Assembly: GCA_019057375.1 (NCBI GenBank)
Contig: DXJF01000050.1
Location: forward strand, 32,001 to 96,000
DNA length: 64,000 bases
From: Candidatus Heimdallarchaeota archaeon
GTDB lineage: Archaea; Asgardarchaeota; Heimdallarchaeia; Heimdallarchaeales; Heimdallarchaeaceae
Reading direction: 5' to 3'
The translations under genes and the position numbers were made by a program. This document shows positions 27,964 to 38,114 of this stretch, piece by piece. Numbering within the stretch: the stretch's first letter is position 1; each line of letters opens with the position of its first letter. Under the pieces are notes generated by a model. It did no database searches and was not told the origin of the DNA. It saw nothing but the letters and a program-made list of their open reading frames with translations.

Positions 27964-29376
27964 ATGAAAATACTTTTCGATGAAACTCAAAAAGAGAGAG
28001 GAAAAATTTTTGAGAATTTTCAGAAACTAGCAAACATACTAGAAGGAGAAGGACATGAAATAAGTAAACATGATTCATATCCGATAAAATATTCAAACAT
28101 TTCCAAATATGATATCTTTGTTTTCTTGTGTCCTGATGGTTCAAAGATTATGGGCCATGAAGTTAAAGCTTTGCTAAGATTTGTTGATGAGGGAGGAGCA
28201 TTAGCTGTTTTCACTAATGCAGGAGGAGATAAAGGATTAAATACTAATCTGAACACACTACTTAAACATTTTAAGGTGGAAATTGTAGCTAATCAAATTT
28301 TTGATTACCAGAACTTTGATTTGGAATTAGAAAGTAATGTAATTGTTTCAAAATTCTATAAGCACCCAATTACTGAAGGTCTTAGTGAAATAACGATGGT
28401 TTCCAGTTGCTCTTTACATCTCCAAGCAGGAGTAGAGGAACTAGCTAGGACAAAAAAAACAAGCGACCCACCAAGTTCTGCTGTTATGGGCATATCGTCT
28501 TATGGTTTAGGAACAGTTTTTGTATGTGGTTCATACCTAATGTTATCTGATTCCAAATCTGGGATTGAGTTAAGAGATAATTCTAAATTAGCTAAAAACC
28601 TATTCAAATATGTATTAGTTCCGCCAACATTTACAAAACAAGATGAAGAACTTGCAGAAGAAGCTGAAGAAGATATAGAAGAGACTGTACAAACAATAGA
28701 AATTAAAGAAAAAGATAGAGAAAAACCTTTTGAATCTGTGAGTAAAATTGATATGGTTAAGGAAGCTCTCTCTAAAGGAGAAACAGATACTGTTAAGGCT
28801 GAAGTTATAAAAGCCATGAAGTCATTAAAAGAAGAAATCAGATCTACAAAAACTGTTGAAAGAGAACCAGAAATAAAAGCACCTCACAAAAATGTTTACG
28901 AATCAATTGCAATAATTCAGGAATTGGAGAAAGATATAGATGAATTGAAAATCGAAGATCCTGGATATCGCGATATTCTGCTGACAGATATGGCTCGCAG
29001 AGAAGGAATTGATTACGCACAAATCCTGCCTTATTTGGAAAGAATTCGTGAAAAAGAAGAACGCGATAAAAGCAAAAAGGAAAAACGTAAAAAAGCTGCT
29101 AAATCTGTAATTAAGGGTGACATTACTTCAATACCAGAACCTAGAACTCCTGAAATGGATCAATTTGAGAAAGATATCATGATTTTTGATCAGGAATTAC
29201 AAGTAGATACAGAAGTTCAGAAAGTTCAACCTGTAGAACAAATGCAAAAAATTGATGATCTTACTCAAGCTGTTAGAGAACTTAAAAATAGTCTTGATGT
29301 TTTAAGTGCAAATCTTATTCATCTGATTAGTGAAATTGTTCTGGAAATGAAAGAGCAAAAAGGCAAGAAAAGATAA
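27964..29376 (+). CDS. GIFT (IFT52/GldG-like, DUF4350-like) domain protein with a coiled-coil C-terminus
   Basis: ILFDETQKE...LLRFVDEGGALAVFTNAGGDKGLNTNLNTLLKHFKV resembles the IFT52 N-terminal domain. No signal peptide; acidic/coiled-coil tail. Confidence 0.65.
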   Translation: MKILFDETQKERGKIFENFQKLANILEGEGHEISKHDSYPIKYSNISKYDIFVFLCPDGSKIMGHEVKALLRFVDEGGALAVFTNAGGDKGLNTNLNTLLKHFKVEIVANQIFDYQNFDLELESNVIVSKFYKHPITEGLSEITMVSSCSLHLQAGVEELARTKKTSDPPSSAVMGISSYGLGTVFVCGSYLMLSDSKSGIELRDNSKLAKNLFKYVLVPPTFTKQDEELAEEAEEDIEETVQTIEIKEKDREKPFESVSKIDMVKEALSKGETDTVKAEVIKAMKSLKEEIRSTKTVEREPEIKAPHKNVYESIAIIQELEKDIDELKIEDPGYRDILLTDMARREGIDYAQILPYLERIREKEERDKSKKEKRKKAAKSVIKGDITSIPEPRTPEMDQFEKDIMIFDQELQVDTEVQKVQPVEQMQKIDDLTQAVRELKNSLDVLSANLIHLISEIVLEMKEQKGKKR

Positions 29377-29392
29377 CCTAGGTCTGATAAAG

Positions 29393-31156
29393 GTGAGGTT
29401 CAAAGATTTATGCGAGTGTTATTTTAGATTAGAGAATACACAGAAGAAACTAGAAATGGTTGATATCTTAGCTAATACTTTATCCAAAGCAGATGGGAGT
29501 GAGATAGGTAAAATTTCTCTTATAACTTTAGGTAAGCTTTATCCAGATTTTGTTGGGATCGAATTAATGCTTGCAGAAAAAATGGCAATCAAAGCTCTAG
29601 CCTTAGCAACAGGTAAGAGCGAGAAAAATATTCTAAACTTCTTAGAAGAAATAGGAGATTTAGGTAAAGCAGTACATAAACTTCTAGATAATAAATCACA
29701 ATCGACATTATTAGCTTTCACAAATCAACAAGAGACTGAACAATATGATGTTGTTGATGTCTGGAAAATTCTTGATACAATTTCTCAAACTTCAGGAGAA
29801 GGATCAGCAGATAAGAAAATAAGGATCTTATCTGGTTTATTATCAAAAGTTACATCTCTGGAAGCAAGATACATCTCTAGGGTGGTTGCAGGAAATTTGA
29901 GAACAGGTGTTGCAGTACAGTTATTGCTTGAAGCGCTATCAAAGGCGAAAACTGGTTCGAAAGAAAACAAGGAATTTTTGGAGAGAGCTTACAACCGATG
30001 TTCAGATATAGATCATGTTTCATCAGTTCTGTATAAAGAAGGTCTTAAGGCTGTCAAGGAAATTGAAGTAAGGGTATTCAGTCCTATTAAAGTGATGCTT
30101 GCACAAAGAGTATCAAGCTCAGAAGAATTACTTGAAAGGTTTAATGGAAAATGCTCTCTAGAGTATAAATATGATGGCTTAAGAGTTCAAATTCACAAAA
30201 AAGATAATCAAGTGAAATTGTTTTCAAGAAGTACTGAAAATATAACAAAACAATTTCCTGATGTTATTGATTTCATTAACAATGCTGCTCTAGAAAATGA
30301 GTTCATTATAGAAGGAGAAATAGTTGCATACGATCACGAAAAAGAAGCAATTTTACCTTTTCAATATGTTTCCCAGAGAAAAAGAAAACATGATATAGAT
30401 CAAAAGATAAGTGAAATTCCTGTTAGAGTTTTTCTTTTTGATGTTCTTTACAGTAATAATACTTCCAGATTAGATTTTAATTATCTTGAAAGGAGAGAGA
30501 ATCTACAGAATATAGTTAGAGAAACTAACAGCATCAAGTTTTCCCATCAAACAATTACTGACAACTCAGATGAAATAGATAATTTCTTCCATAAAGCACT
30601 CCAAGATAGTTGTGAAGGGATTATGGGAAAAAGTATTGGAAAAGATTCTGTGTACCAAGCTGGAGCGCGGGGTTGGAATTGGGTAAAATATAAGGCAGGA
30701 TATGATGCAAAATTATCTGATTCTTTTGATTTAGTGATTCTTGGAGCAGAATATGGAAAGGGAAAACGTGCAGGTAAATATGGAACCTTCCTACTTGGAT
30801 GTTATGACCAGATTGAAGGCGTCTATCAAACCTTTACTAGAATTGGAACAGGATTCTCTGATGAAGATCTTGCATATTTCTTTCAAGAACTCAAACCCCT
30901 TGAAAGAGAGAAACCTAAAGAATATCAAAGTGACATTGAAAGCAGTATCTGGTTTGACCCTAAGATAGTTATTGAGGTAACAGGAGATGAAATAACTAGA
31001 AGTCAAATGCACACTTGCTCAAGAGGTTTATTAGAAAAAGACATGGATGGCTTGGCTTTAAGATTTCCTAGATTTACAGGTAGGACTGTACATGACAAAG
31101 CTCCAGAACAAGCCACTACAAATGATGAAATACGCACAATATATTTAAAGCAATAA
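29393..31156 (+). CDS. lig: ATP-dependent DNA ligase
   Basis: Adenylation motif EYKYDG, IEGEIV, FLFDVLY, EGIMGK, WVKYK, DLVILGA and LRFPRF. Confidence 0.97.
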   Translation: MRFKDLCECYFRLENTQKKLEMVDILANTLSKADGSEIGKISLITLGKLYPDFVGIELMLAEKMAIKALALATGKSEKNILNFLEEIGDLGKAVHKLLDNKSQSTLLAFTNQQETEQYDVVDVWKILDTISQTSGEGSADKKIRILSGLLSKVTSLEARYISRVVAGNLRTGVAVQLLLEALSKAKTGSKENKEFLERAYNRCSDIDHVSSVLYKEGLKAVKEIEVRVFSPIKVMLAQRVSSSEELLERFNGKCSLEYKYDGLRVQIHKKDNQVKLFSRSTENITKQFPDVIDFINNAALENEFIIEGEIVAYDHEKEAILPFQYVSQRKRKHDIDQKISEIPVRVFLFDVLYSNNTSRLDFNYLERRENLQNIVRETNSIKFSHQTITDNSDEIDNFFHKALQDSCEGIMGKSIGKDSVYQAGARGWNWVKYKAGYDAKLSDSFDLVILGAEYGKGKRAGKYGTFLLGCYDQIEGVYQTFTRIGTGFSDEDLAYFFQELKPLEREKPKEYQSDIESSIWFDPKIVIEVTGDEITRSQMHTCSRGLLEKDMDGLALRFPRFTGRTVHDKAPEQATTNDEIRTIYLKQ

Positions 31157-31178
31157 GATAAACTACATGTGAAAGTAT

Positions 31179-31745
31179 ATGTTCGGTAAGAAAAAGAATT
31201 TGTCTGAAGAAGAAATTTCAAAGAGGCCTAGTGAGGCTCTAAAGATTCTTAGTTCAAATATTGAAAACTATCACGGATACAAAGAATTAGAGCTAAGAAG
31301 AGATTCTGATGTAGCTTTCAGAACAAAATTACTTACACTAATGAGGGAAACTGGAGATATGATGAGTCAAGTGCATGAACTTCTAATCCATTCACAATTA
31401 TTAACAAGTTGGGGTCCGGCGGGAATAGTCATGAAAATCGTTTCAGATATGAGAAAAGAAGCATCAAGTACAGATTATAAGTATAGCACATTTTTTGATG
31501 TAAAAGAAGTTGAAGGTGAACATGGAATTGATTTATCCATTCTTTACTTACTAGAAATAGATATTTTGGATAACGCTGAAGAATTTAAAGACAAAATAGT
31601 AGATGTAAAAGTCAATCTAGAGGAGATGATGTTGGATACGGTAGAGAATAATATCACTTCTCTCATGACTCTGAGTAGCAGCGTACAAAATCGGTTTAAT
31701 GAAAGAAATGAGTTACTCCGAGCATTTGAAAAGATGAAACTCTAA
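31179..31745 (+). CDS. Conserved all-helical hypothetical protein
   Basis: YHGYKELELRRDSD and YSTFFDVKEV motifs in a 188-aa helical ORF. Confidence 0.65.
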   Translation: MFGKKKNLSEEEISKRPSEALKILSSNIENYHGYKELELRRDSDVAFRTKLLTLMRETGDMMSQVHELLIHSQLLTSWGPAGIVMKIVSDMRKEASSTDYKYSTFFDVKEVEGEHGIDLSILYLLEIDILDNAEEFKDKIVDVKVNLEEMMLDTVENNITSLMTLSSSVQNRFNERNELLRAFEKMKL

Positions 31746-32044
31746 ATATGCTTTCCAATTATTTTCTTCAAAAGTAAATCATTATCTTGATCCTTTATTA
31801 CAACTATTTTGTTTCTAGACTTTAACCCTCGAGAAATAGAAATAGAAGAGGAGGGAATTTTGAATGTTTTAGTTAAACAACTTAATACTGATCTATTTGC
31901 TTTACCTTTATCTGCTGGCTCCTTAACATAGATATCTATAGAAAAATCAGAAACATCAATCCTATTTACTGAAGATTTTGGATGAACTCTAATTGATAAA
32001 AAGACTTCATCATTCCTAATTTCAAAAGCTGGATGTGAAAACAA
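31742..32044 (-). CDS. DUF167/YggU-family protein
   Basis: IRVHPKSS, VKEPADKGKAN and ISRGLKSRNKIV. Confidence 0.9.
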   Translation of the reverse strand: MFSHPAFEIRNDEVFLSIRVHPKSSVNRIDVSDFSIDIYVKEPADKGKANRSVLSCLTKTFKIPSSSISISRGLKSRNKIVVIKDQDNDLLLKKIIGKHI

Positions 32045-32066: not shown

Positions 32067-32426
32067 TCAAGCTACTTTTGCTGCAAGTCTTGCTGTAGTA
32101 GCATAAGCTATGTCTTTCTGTATATTGGCTGGAGACCAAGAAATTACACAACCCGCCCATTTTGGACAACGGGCAACAATTAAATGTCCTTGACCGCCCA
32201 TGTTGGTTGAGATCAATCTCTCAGGAGTCATTGTGATTACTGTAAATTTTAAACCTCCACCAAAATCAATGCTTGGTTTTTGATTTTTCCATGAATCGAA
32301 AGGTATTGTAGGGTCAACAGCCCAGTCACCATATTGAAAATAACATTTCAAATCATCCCCAATTAACCAAACCACTCCAACAGTTCCTTCTTGAGCAGCT
32401 ACTGCAACATCGTCTTGAAAACTCAT
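32067..32426 (-). CDS. Asgard-type profilin
   Basis: 119 aa. YGDW...W...KFTVITMTPERLISTNMGGQGHLI...AYATTARLA matches the pattern of Asgard profilins as I recall them. GGTGA RBS at 32434-32438. Confidence 0.8.
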   Translation of the reverse strand: MSFQDDVAVAAQEGTVGVVWLIGDDLKCYFQYGDWAVDPTIPFDSWKNQKPSIDFGGGLKFTVITMTPERLISTNMGGQGHLIVARCPKWAGCVISWSPANIQKDIAYATTARLAAKVA

Positions 32427-32575
32427 GATTCTTTCACCATTTCTGAATTAATCTATTCCTTATTGTATTAAATATTTTTTCTTACGGGTAGATTAGTTTA
32501 CCTAGTATCTTAAATATTTAATATGGGTAATTTAGGAACATATTTGAATACGTACAATCTTTAATCTTATTAAGA

Positions 32576-35146
32576 ATGTTAGACGATGAAGTAAACGTTA
32601 AGAGAAGACGTATTCTCCGATTTATTAGAGATTTAGATTTACGTTACATACGTGGTTCAATTGATAGAAGAACCTATCAAACTTTAAAAAACAAATATAA
32701 GGAACTTCTAGCAAATCTTCCAAAAACTATTACTGCAGACGAGGAAAAGAAAAAACTAGAAGAAACCAAACAAAAATTACCTGAAGTTGAACAAGACATT
32801 CATCAAATTCAGATAGGGGAAATATCAATTCCAGCTGAAACTGAAACTGGTGAACCTCAAATTAAGACAGAAGAAGTGTCGGTACCTACTGAAGTCGAGA
32901 TCGTTAAAGTAACCGAGATTCCCATTATTGAGCTTGAAGAAATCCCTCCTATTGAAATTGAAGAATTAAAAGTAAGATATGTTATGAATATGGCTATAAA
33001 GGCAGCTACAAAGACATTCGAAGAGGAAATGGCCCTAGAGCAAGAATATATGTCTGGTAAAATTGATGACCAGGAATATATGGAAAAAAAGAATGAAGTT
33101 GAAGCCAAGCAACATAAAATCTTTCAACATTTTTACAAATTATCTGAGCTATTATTTTCTGTTAGCACAGAACATTTATACAAAAACACTCACAATAATT
33201 TTCTACTTTTTAACAATGAGTTGAGTGAAAACATCAATAGGTTAAGACGTCTTGTTACAGATAAGAAAGAATTGAAGGGAATAATCTATGATATTAATGA
33301 AAGAGTGTTAAGACATCGACCTATTCTCCGAAAAGCAGCTCAAGATACTCTAAGATGGAAGGTTATTATTCAACAGGAAAGAGAAAATTTTAGAATTTTC
33401 AAGGAGAACAACATAGATGAAATTTCTGAAGCTCAGATAGATGAATTAACCAGAAAAATCAAGCAACTCGAAATTTATGAGGAGCTATTAGATGAAGATG
33501 TTAACGATTACGCTAAAGATTTGGATGCCTTGGATGTAATTTATGGAGAGCATCTACAGTTTCAAGAAATAATAACTCCTTACTTCAAAGATCTAACACT
33601 TGAGACAGAAAATCGTATTCAAAAATATAGTGAAATTATTAGTGCCCTACAATTTCGCAATCAATTAACAGTTGCAACCAGTGCATCAAGTAGGGAGATA
33701 GATTATCAGCTGTTATCAGAACTTAAAGCACTTTGGAGATATTCTGGTAAGCCTGTGATTGATGAACAAAAGGATTTAGTTGGTTTTGCAGTCGGTCCTG
33801 GACAACTAAATGAGAAATTTGGTATAATTCTAAGGCAACAACAAGAGTTATCGCTCTCTATGGTCAGAAGGATTTACGATAATATCGTAACACAAATTAG
33901 TGGAGAATCTGAACTGGAAAATGAAAAAGAGAAAAAAGAATTTTTGTTAAATGAGCTACCTAAAAATATACCACAAATGCCTTTTACATATTTAATACCA
34001 GAAGCGATCATAGAATACTGCAAGATTAAGGGTTCAGTATTAGCAGAAGAAATAATTGAAATAATTCTTCAACCTCAAAATTATCTATTTGTTCCCATTG
34101 AGAAAATAGAGAAAACGGCAAGAGAAATGAAAATAAAAAGTCAAGACATTATCCAAAATGGTGATGTACTTCCTTATTTCAATCCAGCAGAAAGCAATAT
34201 TATTAATGATAAAATTACTGAAAATAAAAATATTGCTGCAAGAAATGTTTTTGGAAAGGCAATTGGTAAAGCCCATTCTGTCATATATCACCCTATGAAA
34301 GGATACTTCCTTGTTGTAGAAAAGAAAAAAGTATCTGCTGATCTTTTTGGAATAATTTATGATTTCTTTTATGATGTTTACAACCAGCCGCTCATTACTC
34401 GAACTAAGATATCTCTTCGAGATAAAAGGAAAAAGATTCTAGAAGATTTTTCACAAGAATATGACAGAACTGAGGATGAAATAGATGATATTGAAATGCT
34501 GAAAAGGATTTTAATTGAGAAAAACTCTGGAATTCTCCCTGAAAAAGTAGAAAATTCTAAATTTTCATTATATTCAATGGGCAATGTTAGACAAATTGGT
34601 AATATGATTCAGGTTAGTTACGGTGCTCCTTCATTTGAGTTAAATGAAATTTTTGATTTAGAAGGTAAAGTAGTTGAAAATGTAAAAGGTACAGAAATTG
34701 GTATTGTATATAATTTACAACTTATGGAAAAACCCTTCCTCTATTTATGGACATCAATTGACCTATTATTAATTGCTTCTTTCATCAGTGAATTTCCAGC
34801 TTCACTGTTTGAAAAAGATCAGAATTTCATTGATAACTTAGCTATTTCTATAGGTAAACAACTGAGTATAGCTCCGCAGGTTGCACTCAGACCTGACATA
34901 GTAATGACCTTTATGAATCTCATAGGTAAAATTGGAAATCTTGCGCAAATGAAAGAAACGATGGAAAAATTCAATCCGAAAACTATAGAATTAAGCAGAA
35001 TTATTTCAGTTGATAAGCGTAAAATATTAGCTGATATAAGTGATAAAGAAATTATGGAAGAAATTTACACTGACTTTGAAGTAGGAGATGCTGAAGATGA
35101 GAATAGATTTGTTACATCTCCTGATTACTACTTAAAGGAACAATGA
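32576..35146 (+). CDS. SHOCT-like/coiled-coil protein with three PRC-barrel-like repeats
   Basis: Two SHOCT-like motifs and a long coiled coil, then GKPVIDEQKDLVG, NVFGKAIGKA and GKVVENVKGTEIGIV units. Confidence 0.55.
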   Translation: MLDDEVNVKRRRILRFIRDLDLRYIRGSIDRRTYQTLKNKYKELLANLPKTITADEEKKKLEETKQKLPEVEQDIHQIQIGEISIPAETETGEPQIKTEEVSVPTEVEIVKVTEIPIIELEEIPPIEIEELKVRYVMNMAIKAATKTFEEEMALEQEYMSGKIDDQEYMEKKNEVEAKQHKIFQHFYKLSELLFSVSTEHLYKNTHNNFLLFNNELSENINRLRRLVTDKKELKGIIYDINERVLRHRPILRKAAQDTLRWKVIIQQERENFRIFKENNIDEISEAQIDELTRKIKQLEIYEELLDEDVNDYAKDLDALDVIYGEHLQFQEIITPYFKDLTLETENRIQKYSEIISALQFRNQLTVATSASSREIDYQLLSELKALWRYSGKPVIDEQKDLVGFAVGPGQLNEKFGIILRQQQELSLSMVRRIYDNIVTQISGESELENEKEKKEFLLNELPKNIPQMPFTYLIPEAIIEYCKIKGSVLAEEIIEIILQPQNYLFVPIEKIEKTAREMKIKSQDIIQNGDVLPYFNPAESNIINDKITENKNIAARNVFGKAIGKAHSVIYHPMKGYFLVVEKKKVSADLFGIIYDFFYDVYNQPLITRTKISLRDKRKKILEDFSQEYDRTEDEIDDIEMLKRILIEKNSGILPEKVENSKFSLYSMGNVRQIGNMIQVSYGAPSFELNEIFDLEGKVVENVKGTEIGIVYNLQLMEKPFLYLWTSIDLLLIASFISEFPASLFEKDQNFIDNLAISIGKQLSIAPQVALRPDIVMTFMNLIGKIGNLAQMKETMEKFNPKTIELSRIISVDKRKILADISDKEIMEEIYTDFEVGDAEDENRFVTSPDYYLKEQ

Positions 35147-35190: not shown

Positions 35191-36072
35191 ATGAAAAACA
35201 CATTTCTAGGTTTCTTTGATCAATCTTTTGAATCATTAGACAAACTTAAAGAAAAAAATACACTTTTTCTTTTCGGCATTCCATTCGAAAGAACAAAAGA
35301 TAACAAGAGAGGGTCTAGAAAAGCTCCCAATGCTCTTAGGAAAAAATCTCTTGAGTTTAGTGCAGTTTCAACTACTTTTAACATCTACCAGAATAAAGCA
35401 AATTACTATGATATTGGAAATTTTCATCCAATTAAGGAAAAGAAGAAAATCCAAAAACTCTGGGATAAGGCTTTAGATTTGAATTCTAGAATTTTAGTTT
35501 TAGGAGGAGACCATAGTATAACTTTCGATACACTTTCTCTTGCACCATGGGATGATAAAACTGCATTAATTTGGTTTGATGCACATTCAGATCTAGCAGA
35601 TGAATATCCTCCCGGAATTTTTCAATCACATGGTACTGTTTTCGCTAATCTGAAAGACAAACTAGAACTGGAAAAAGACCAGATGCTGTTTATAGGTGGT
35701 CATGCATATACTCAAACCACCACAGAATATTTGAAGATTCAAGAAGAGACAGAAGTATTTCATGTACCAACTCAGAAGATATTTTCAAATAAGTATGATT
35801 CGTTAAAGATTATCTCTGAATTTGTTTCCAACTTTGACAGAATTTATGTGAGTATTGATGCAGATGCATTTGATCAAGCTTATGTCCCCACACTTGCTAC
35901 TATGGAACCTTTTGGATTAACTCCCCAGTTGATTGTAGAAATGCTAGAAATTATTTTACCTAGAACCAAATACGTTGACATAGTAGAATTCAGACATTCA
36001 TTCCTCAATAGAACAGCATTAAATTTTGGTGTTGGTTTGATTTTCAAAATTCTTGAATTATGGGAAAAATAA
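35191..36072 (+). CDS. speB: Agmatinase/arginase-family ureohydrolase
   Basis: GIPF, GGDHSIT, DAHSD, SHGT and SIDADAFD. The Mn-binding motifs are intact. Confidence 0.85.
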   Translation: MKNTFLGFFDQSFESLDKLKEKNTLFLFGIPFERTKDNKRGSRKAPNALRKKSLEFSAVSTTFNIYQNKANYYDIGNFHPIKEKKKIQKLWDKALDLNSRILVLGGDHSITFDTLSLAPWDDKTALIWFDAHSDLADEYPPGIFQSHGTVFANLKDKLELEKDQMLFIGGHAYTQTTTEYLKIQEETEVFHVPTQKIFSNKYDSLKIISEFVSNFDRIYVSIDADAFDQAYVPTLATMEPFGLTPQLIVEMLEIILPRTKYVDIVEFRHSFLNRTALNFGVGLIFKILELWEK

Positions 36073-36117
36073 CCGATAGAGAAGAAACTTTATTTTTATA
36101 TATCACATATATAGGTT

Positions 36118-36504
36118 ATGTCTCCCAAAAAAATTATTTTAACAGATAAAGCTCCAGCACCTGTAGGACCTTATTCCCAAGCAATCAAGGCTGGAAATTT
36201 CCTTTATGTAGCAGGTCAAATCCCAGCAAACCCAGCAACTGGAGAGATTTACTATGGTGATGTAAAAGTAGCTACAAAACAAGTATGTGAAAACATCAAA
36301 GCAATTGTAGAAGAAGCAGGTTACACACTTCAAGATGTTGTAAGATGTAGGGTATATCTAAAAGATATGGAACAATTCTCAAATATGAATGAAGTTTTTG
36401 CTCAATATTTCGGAGATAGCCCTCCTGCTAGAGTAGCTATTGAGGCGAAAAGGTTACCAAAGGATGTAGATGTGGAGATATCTGCAACTGCATGGAAAGA
36501 GTGA
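36118..36504 (+). CDS. ridA: RidA/YjgF enamine-imine deaminase
   Basis: [21 protein letters not shown]...PPARVAI...LPKDVDVEI with the conserved Arg. Confidence 0.95.
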
Positions 36505-36617: not shown

Positions 36618-38114
36618 CTATTTCTTCTTTTTTAAGTAGATTGCAGCTAATGCGATTAAACCAGCTATAGTAGTTAGACCAAATGGGAATGGTACAGGGA
36701 AATCGCTACGTGTTTCGACAGGAATTAAGTCTATAGAGAAAGTAAATAAGTATTGGTTACCAGATCTATCATAAACTGTCATTAAGATGTCGTGTTCTCC
36801 ATATTCTAAGAATAGTAAAGTAACTTCACCTGAATCTCCTTCAGCAGTTACTAGATTACCTTCATCTGTTTCTAATGAGATTTTCAAGACGCCGCTACCT
36901 CCAGTGTCATTAGCTGAGACTTGAAATGTTGCACTTTTGATTTCCACTTTAATAGGGATATTTTCACCGGCTAAAGGTTCAATTAACTCACCATCAACTA
37001 GTACTTTTACTATTCCTATTGGATTTATTTGTTCTATTAAAGTTATCACATATTCTGTGACTGAAAGAGTTTCGGAATACGCTGTAACTGAGATGTTATA
37101 TTCACCTACACTTGAATAAAGATGATATATGGTATCATATGATATATTTACAATCGATTGTATTCCTGATAAATCATCCCAATCAATTTCTACGAGTGTA
37201 ATATTTGAATGAGGTGCCAAAGCTACATACATTAGGCTATAATTTAGAGAATTAGTATATCTTTCTCCTGTTAATTCTACTTCAGGAGTAGTGTCTACTA
37301 TTGTTACAACATGAGCCCAGTTCTCATGTAGAATTCTACTTTGAAGAGTCATATTATCATTTTGTATTATGAAACCTCTTACTTCTACTTCTGTCCCTAC
37401 TTCAAATGAGTGATTAAAGGATATACTAACATTTCTTTCGGTTACACTCGATTCAACTAGAGAAACTGTAACATTTTGGAAATCAGTATCATGTTCCGGA
37501 GTTACTTCACGGTAACTCAACCCATATCCTGTAATATTATACTCATACATTGTCAAATTGTACTTAATTTCATTGAGTTGTGTGTAAACATCTGGGATTA
37601 GAGCAGATATAACCCTTGGTGAAATTGTGATTAAATGTGGAACGCGAAAATCATTCTCATATACTCCATATCTGACAATAAATGATATGAAATTAGAAAT
37701 TATGAAAAATGTATGATTATAATATGCAGAACCATCTGATTCTAATTCAGTTTTTTCATAATCATAGGTCATCAAGATTCCAATATTCCAAGAAAGATTC
37801 CCTACACCATCGTCACCAAATAAAATTGGAGCTGATAAATTATCTCCACCTGCAAAAGAATACCAAATTGTTACATTCTTATAGAGATCTGCTGTGTATA
37901 TTGCTCCACGACGCAATGTGATGCTTTGCGATGCTAATAAAGTGGCATTGCCATCTGTTCCTCTAAAAATGGGTTTAATATCGGCATCTAATGTGGGGAG
38001 AGAGTTTTGAGGATCATTCTGTTCACTTTTAGTAATAGTGGTTAGACTCATACTAAATACAAGAGCTAGTAGTACCAAAGGTATGACAGTACGTTTTTTC
38101 ATCAATGAATTCAC
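36618..38114 (-). CDS. Exported surface protein with PKD/Ig-like domains and a C-terminal membrane anchor
   Basis: N-terminal signal peptide, IDWDD...HLYSSVGEYNISVTAY PKD-like segment, and a PFPF + TM + KKKK tail. Confidence 0.75.
   Translation of the reverse strand: MNSLMKKRTVIPLVLLALVFSMSLTTITKSEQNDPQNSLPTLDADIKPIFRGTDGNATLLASQSITLRRGAIYTADLYKNVTIWYSFAGGDNLSAPILFGDDGVGNLSWNIGILMTYDYEKTELESDGSAYYNHTFFIISNFISFIVRYGVYENDFRVPHLITISPRVISALIPDVYTQLNEIKYNLTMYEYNITGYGLSYREVTPEHDTDFQNVTVSLVESSVTERNVSISFNHSFEVGTEVEVRGFIIQNDNMTLQSRILHENWAHVVTIVDTTPEVELTGERYTNSLNYSLMYVALAPHSNITLVEIDWDDLSGIQSIVNISYDTIYHLYSSVGEYNISVTAYSETLSVTEYVITLIEQINPIGIVKVLVDGELIEPLAGENIPIKVEIKSATFQVSANDTGGSGVLKISLETDEGNLVTAEGDSGEVTLLFLEYGEHDILMTVYDRSGNQYLFTFSIDLIPVETRSDFPVPFPFGLTTIAGLIALAAIYLKKKK

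Follow-up and report, generated by a model that had tools for sequence, protein, structure and literature searches.

A Heimdallarchaeal protein built of three helix-split PRC barrels and encoded beside profilin: a candidate cytoskeletal scaffold for actin or division in archaea

The window analyzed here, 64,000 nucleotides of a Heimdallarchaeaceae assembly (3.47 Mb in total, 89% complete; the contig of the window is labelled C150), contains at positions 32576-35146 a gene for an 856-residue protein in which a helical front half is followed by three PRC barrels, each of them split by a helical insertion of about 70 residues, and which is located next to the only profilin gene detected in this genome. 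We consider this triple-PRC protein as an unproven candidate for a scaffold in the archaeal cytoskeleton, either that of actin or that of division. Eukaryotes have no closer known relatives than Asgard archaea, whose actin, profilin and gelsolin work in vitro, while we know of no natural ligand identified for Asgard profilin, and the intracellular docking sites of all three proteins are, to our knowledge, almost unknown. The PRC barrel, in turn, is the one fold known in both archaeal division systems: CdpB1-3 form PRC polymers at the division ring, and CdvA, combining PRC with a coiled coil, is filament-forming. Being large, conserved, known to date from Asgard archaea alone, kept beside a single profilin and built of PRC barrels, the protein therefore makes a concrete candidate, and one that can be cloned, for a link between actin regulation and cell division or the shaping of membranes.

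The frame 32576-35146 of the forward strand is free of stops and is translated into 856 aa plus stop; its ATG is aligned with the start of the homologues in the alignment of full-length sequences (A1), which indicates the same start codon, so that the open reading frame is confirmed as a real gene. It is single-copy in its own genome, no membrane segment is predicted in the 856-aa product (maximal hydropathy 1.55), and every string quoted from this region in an earlier note on the same DNA was found in the translation. Positions of the gene, its parts and the neighboring profilin are collected in Table 1.

Table 1. The triple-PRC gene, its structural parts and the adjacent profilin gene in the window (aa, residues of the 856-aa product)
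Feature	Position	Strand	Description
Whole gene	32576..35146	+	856-aa acidic product, net charge about -35, no predicted membrane segment
N-terminal helical region	32576..32821	+	aa 1-82; AlphaFold2 helices 3-26, 31-46, 54-66, 68-80
Acidic linker	32822..32947	+	aa 83-124; net charge -9; length varies strongly in A1
Helical bundle	32948..33649	+	aa 125-358; six helices
PRC unit 1	33725..34147	+	aa 384-524; strands 393-421, 503-520; helical insert about 425-498
PRC unit 2	34208..34627	+	aa 545-684; strands 554-582, 663-680; helical insert about 586-658
PRC unit 3	34643..35041	+	aa 690-822; strands 699-725, 801-819; helical insert about 729-796
Acidic C-terminal tail	35042..35143	+	aa 823-856; net charge -9; low predicted local distance difference test values at 834-840
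Asgard profilin gene	32067..32426	-	119 aa; PDB 5zza_P E 3.5e-11, 7pbh E 2e-5, 6yrr E 4.5e-3

The whole-protein AlphaFold2 (AF2) model built on A1 has a mean predicted local distance difference test (pLDDT) of 78.6, reaching about 85 in the C-terminal half. Modelled segments 393-520, 554-680 and 699-819 display an identical order of strands and helices: a short strand, a long hairpin, four to five helices over about 70 residues and three short strands, with the insert positioned between strands 3 and 4 of each barrel. Unit 2 carries a family-invariant G..H-P..G hairpin (G564, H572, P573 and G576) together with L654-P655, and the barrel-closing tails are LFVPIEKIEK (504-513), LYSMGNVRQIGNMIQV (664-679) and TIELSRIISVDKRKILA (803-819). 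Comparison of unit slices taken from the broad alignment of sequences with the C-terminal module (A2) by hhalign relates unit 1 to unit 2 over 134 columns, those of the insert among them, at E 6.8e-10 (probability 97%), while unit 3 is aligned with units 1 and 2 at E 1.6e-3 and 4.3e-3, respectively, in register from end to end. Since the homology of units 1 and 2 spans the insert, the latter predates triplication of the unit; judged by these profile alignments, it is an insert-bearing PRC unit that was triplicated. The model of units 1 and 2 together, predicted with distant relatives in the alignment, has pLDDT 89.2 and a predicted template modelling score of 0.84, which suggests that the two units would pack in a fixed way.

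Assignment of these units to PRC barrels is based on both shape and profile. Foldseek with the whole model gave CdpB1/CdpB2 (8qzo), RimM and the reaction-centre H subunit as the best matches, all with weak E-values, and a search of 48,161 chains with the two-unit model, independent of Foldseek, returned PRC barrels as all seven best chains; all three units, as predicted models, match solved PRC barrels. For the profile comparison, a canonical PRC profile was made of 17 small PRC proteins from other Asgard genomes, and the insert columns were removed from the units. Aligned in this way, unit 2 matches the canonical profile at E 2.8e-6 (probability 88%, 63 columns), unit 3 at E 8e-4 and unit 1 at E 0.025, the reversed controls giving E 0.08-0.4, and all three align across the whole canonical barrel. 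Unit 1 is counted as PRC because it is tied to unit 2 by the alignment described above. Thus, AF2 models, structure searches and insert-free alignments bear out the proposal of the earlier note that the protein has three PRC barrels, each split by a helical insertion, and the hhalign comparisons do the same for their mutual homology.

The Pfam model of the domain, PF05239 (cut-off 21.2 bits), finds no match in the 856-aa protein even at E 10, nor does it find anything at E up to 1 in a six-frame search of its own genome; among 29 members of the triple-PRC family it matches four, at best with E 0.0089. This miss is expected because the barrels are split by the insert: they are interrupted after strand 3 by the helical residues and do not form the contiguous domain of about 80 residues, so that barrel shape and whole-barrel profile similarity are combined here with a missing PF05239 match. 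We regard the protein as a new variant of PRC-barrel scaffold, whose function we infer, and not as a member of CdvA, CdpB or SHOCT. The case indicates that PRC barrels can escape standard family models behind large inserts, which bears on the claim of their near-universality in archaea. The match of a 61-codon frame on contig C99 to the spliced unit-2 profile proved spurious, being created by the splice junction.

Search of 5.8 billion proteins revealed 42 relatives (E up to 2.8e-186), a majority of them full length with 38-94% identity over 834-897 aa, and all those with a named source belong to Heimdall-type metagenome-assembled genomes. Profile search over 1.84 billion cluster representatives yielded only 16 proteins, the source-named ones being Asgard without exception; six of them are remote, with matches confined to residues about 355-805, their sources being given as Asgard group, Promethearchaeota or Heimdallarchaeota. 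In the survey of 301 Asgard genomes, the C-terminal module is present in 67: in 27/28 genomes of family f1, 17/21 of f5, 11/11 of f6, 4/7 of f24 and in all genomes of f7, f9, f15 and f22, while f2-f4, f11 (0/76) and f14 (0/68) gave no match. As far as these sequence searches reach, the triple-PRC family has turned up in no lineage other than Asgard archaea. Neither Pfam nor NCBIfam has a match to the whole protein or to single units, a profile search of PDB sequences with the 856-aa protein gave one chance match only, the ESM Atlas, queried by shape and features, returned low-scoring PRC clusters, none with the same architecture, and no published description linking such a triple-PRC protein to Asgard archaea was found. 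The earlier supposition that the protein is undescribed thus holds as far as tested.

The profilin gene, recognized by its similarity to solved profilins (Table 1) and matched by no Pfam or NCBIfam model, is divergent from the triple-PRC gene across an intergenic region of 149 bp (32427-32575). The linkage was counted over the surveyed genomes by comparing coordinates of module and profilin matches in the cases where both are on the same contig. Profilin adjoins the module gene in all such cases of the families f1 (19/19, one of them at 1.7 kb), f9 (2/2), f15 (1/1) and f22 (1/1) and of the long form in f6 (10/10), and it is found directly downstream of the module gene in a relative of about 17% identity. 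This adjacency persists between genes more than 4 substitutions per site apart on the tree, where the profilin-linked genes make up two well separated groups, and in f6 and f15 it has outlived the remainder of the gene block. The genomes of f6 (L030, L031 and L032) have in addition a second, shorter copy of the module of about 536-544 aa, which is grouped with the f1 clade on the tree, but on long branches.

Based on this, we hold with moderate confidence that the family represents a soluble, non-enzymatic scaffold or adaptor of Asgard archaea with profilin-actin as the most likely partner system and FtsZ/SepF as the second. By analogy with CdvA and CdpB1-3, assembly would proceed through helix-helix and PRC contacts, and partners would then be recruited through the barrels, linker and tail. 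Profilin-actin is favored because adjacency of the gene to a single profilin has endured through deep divergence; a division-site role together with FtsZ/SepF, in which the protein would replace the missing small PRC proteins, appears as the second possibility compatible with the actin role. As the one persistent neighbor, profilin speaks for actin no less than for FtsZ/SepF. Several observations weigh against assigning the family to profilin-actin. Its relatives in f5, f21 and f24, as well as the short f6 paralogue, do not adjoin profilin. The pair is oriented divergently in f1, convergently in f6, f15 and f22 and co-directionally in f9, and co-transcription is therefore not a general cause of the linkage. 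An old mixed block with genes for a GIFT-domain protein, DNA ligase, a DUF167-like protein and agmatinase includes the pair in f1, f9 and f22, and adjacency may partly reflect inheritance of gene order there. Finally, prolines nowhere form runs of three or longer in the 856-aa protein of the window.

The last point concerns a more specific and rather doubtful version of the profilin-actin reading, in which the family would be a native docking platform of Asgard profilin-actin, that is, an actin assembly or anchoring factor made from PRC barrels instead of FH2 or WH2: the linker (polyproline in some lineages) or the tail would recruit profilin-actin, and the self-associating helical half together with the triple barrel would tie actin to the membrane or division site. 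The likeness to profilin-docking regions of formin FH1 and Ena-VASP consists in proline runs of up to eight residues in some f6 linkers with the profilin gene adjacent, whereas neither FH2 nor EVH domains occur anywhere. In the long f6 relatives of about 1020-1040 aa (L029:8026-11136 (-), P0051 and P0054), which adjoin profilin, the linker that joins the helical half to the barrels contains runs of eight, four and three prolines; such runs are missing from L027, also of f6. Binding of Heimdall profilin to polyproline is known from work in vitro (PMC8410842). For the protein of the window, the assignment to formin-like profilin-actin assembly factors was rejected, as it has no proline-rich tract.

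An alternative, which we consider unlikely, attributes to the triple PRC module the job of CdpB1-3, i.e., that of an organizer of the FtsZ/SepF divisome tethered at mid-cell via SepF in a lineage that lost its small PRC proteins. PRC proteins are reported as near-universal in archaea, being present in 509/524 genomes, and are needed for division of Haloferax, where three of them act at the division ring (10.1101/2023.03.28.534520). PF05239 is found in none of 29 Heimdallarchaeaceae genomes (own and 28 others) and is present in 10/11 genomes of the sister family f2 and 64/76 of f11, a pattern of related genomes and not of independent samples; canonical PRC genes number one to three in sister families within the order. 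A hidden Markov model (HMM) of canonical Asgard PRC proteins also finds nothing in the own genome, and from both null results it follows that the triple-PRC protein, as predicted from sequence, may be the only PRC protein of Heimdallarchaeaceae. The same genome encodes SepF, two FtsZ-like proteins, actin, an ARP-like protein and two ESCRT-III proteins. The absence of canonical PRC genes alongside SepF and FtsZ lends the CdpB-like role indirect support. Nevertheless, complementarity with small PRC proteins is not strict because f6 has both kinds, and f14 is mostly without either; besides this, in the loci read the gene never adjoins ftsZ or sepF, its persistent neighbor being profilin. Co-folding of the C-terminal module (A2) with SepF of the own genome (P0062) resulted in a score of 0.00, which counts neither for nor against. 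Outside the window, actin and two ESCRT-III (Snf7) genes are located on contig C132 (31953-33063 and 46535-47644), about 13 kb apart.

Compared with the CdpB1/CdpB2/CdpB3 system (8qzo and 8onw), the protein is likewise archaeal and non-enzymatic and also relies on several PRC barrels acting together, though three of them are in one chain here and small proteins form a heteromer there. CdpB proteins are small (97 aa for CdpB1, 10.1101/2023.03.28.534520), have no helical insert in the barrel and, as other canonical PRC proteins, are recognized by PF05239, while the triple-PRC protein, with its inserts of about 70 residues and a tandem fusion behind 360 helical residues, is missed.

It is also quite improbable, in our estimate, that adjacency to profilin is nothing but inherited gene order and that the PRC scaffold serves unrelated housekeeping, for instance, a ribosome- or RNA-related function as with RimM, the bacterial ribosome-maturation factor. 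Such an explanation accounts for DNA ligase, agmatinase and RidA in the old block, agrees with the convergent orientation in three families, which speaks against co-expression, and finds a parallel in archaeal PRC genes often located near translation genes (10.1101/2023.03.28.534520). Adjacency to profilin, however, outlasts that of all other neighbors (five families vs three) and survives local inversions, and no conserved translation gene stands beside the triple-PRC gene. With the C-terminal PRC domain of RimM (2f1l, 3h9n and 2dyi) the barrel alone is in common, the fold matches being limited to it: RimM is devoid of the insert, and its N-terminal domain is absent from the triple-PRC protein.

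Building blocks of CdvA from Thermoproteota (9s9g; PF18822), which consists of a PRC barrel, a three-helix coiled coil and an ESCRT-III-binding tail, are common with those of the triple-PRC protein (10.1101/2025.09.15.676241; PMC11188069): both have the PRC barrel, an antiparallel helical domain and a flexible tail with a short conserved peptide at its end. The order is reversed here, with the helical part first and three barrels last, there is an insert in each barrel, and the size is about three times larger. That the protein is a permuted and enlarged CdvA working with ESCRT-III/Vps4 in membrane scission seems very improbable, for its combination of PRC barrels with a helical domain, two ESCRT-III genes in the genome and the best PF18822 match of this genome falling on its N-terminus (aa 4-77, 18.7 bits, E 3.5e-3) are countered by the reversed domain order, by the lack of linkage to ESCRT genes and by PF18822 scores that all stay below the 30-bit cut-off (three relatives at E 7e-4 to 0.026, two of them at E 7-8e-4, with 20.1 bits for the best one), weak matches being also found in 10/14 control genomes and GvpG and SHOCT models matching the same motif equally weakly. 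CdvA membership (arCOG04054, PF18822) was accordingly rejected by score, architecture and the test for a cdvA-cdvB-cdvC cluster: there is no cdvB/cdvC neighborhood at the locus, both Snf7 genes being on contig C132 and profilin and agmatinase being the neighbors.

Two helical hairpins of the front half, each with a G-x-I-D turn, bear at these turns the motifs which the earlier note called SHOCT-like. The first one (aa 13-46), inside the N-terminal helical region, has the order helix, G-S-I-D turn, helix and includes LDLRYIRGSIDRRTYQTLK (aa 20-38); the second one (aa 148-178), around S-G-K-I-D, is inside the six-helix bundle and includes LEQEYMSGKIDDQEYMEKK (aa 153-171). A similar motif is present at the N-terminus of distant relatives. 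Comparison of the hairpins gave E 0.023 over just 22 columns, and their origin by duplication is for this reason not established. The resemblance to SHOCT stands at the level of the motif and was abandoned at the level of family: the SHOCT HMM (PF09851, cut-off 27 bits) has no match in the 856-aa protein, and just two distant relatives match it, at E 0.012-0.016 and about 15.5 bits, which is below threshold. Besides, SHOCT is a short domain at the protein C-terminus, whereas the motifs here are N-terminal and internal. The GvpG model also gives sub-threshold matches to the hairpin motif in seven segments (E 1e-4 to 0.06). The proposed coiled coil of about 250 aa is indeed helical, but it is modelled as antiparallel helical hairpins and not as one long rod.

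Between the two helical parts, residues 83-111 of the flexible acidic linker have pLDDT <50, and the secondary structure remains non-helical up to 124 in the AF2 model; the linker ends in a conserved I-P-x-I/V-E-I-E-E-L-K stretch, in which P116 is invariant in A1. The acidic tail of the protein ends, in turn, in a conserved peptide F-V-T/A-S-P-D-Y-Y-L (aa 845-853, nt 35108-35134) with V846, P849 and L853 invariant and S848, D850 and Y851 at least 90% conserved in A1; likely, this peptide is a docking motif.

As for the other neighbors, a 498-aa protein without Pfam or NCBIfam match is encoded at 36618-38114 (-), and a gene for 485 aa, also without family matches, occupies this position in Heimdallarchaeum endolithica (L002). 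Genes for an agmatinase/arginase-family protein and RidA (35191-36504, +) are on the same strand 45 bp downstream of the triple-PRC gene; their order is the same in Heimdallarchaeum endolithica, with no obvious functional tie. On the other side of the profilin gene, the block at 27964-32044, found also at loci L002, L038, L039 and L045, comprises genes of a GIFT-domain protein and of ATP-dependent DNA ligase, besides that of a family-less 188-aa protein and a DUF167/PF1765-like one; the last two genes occur near the f5 relatives as well.

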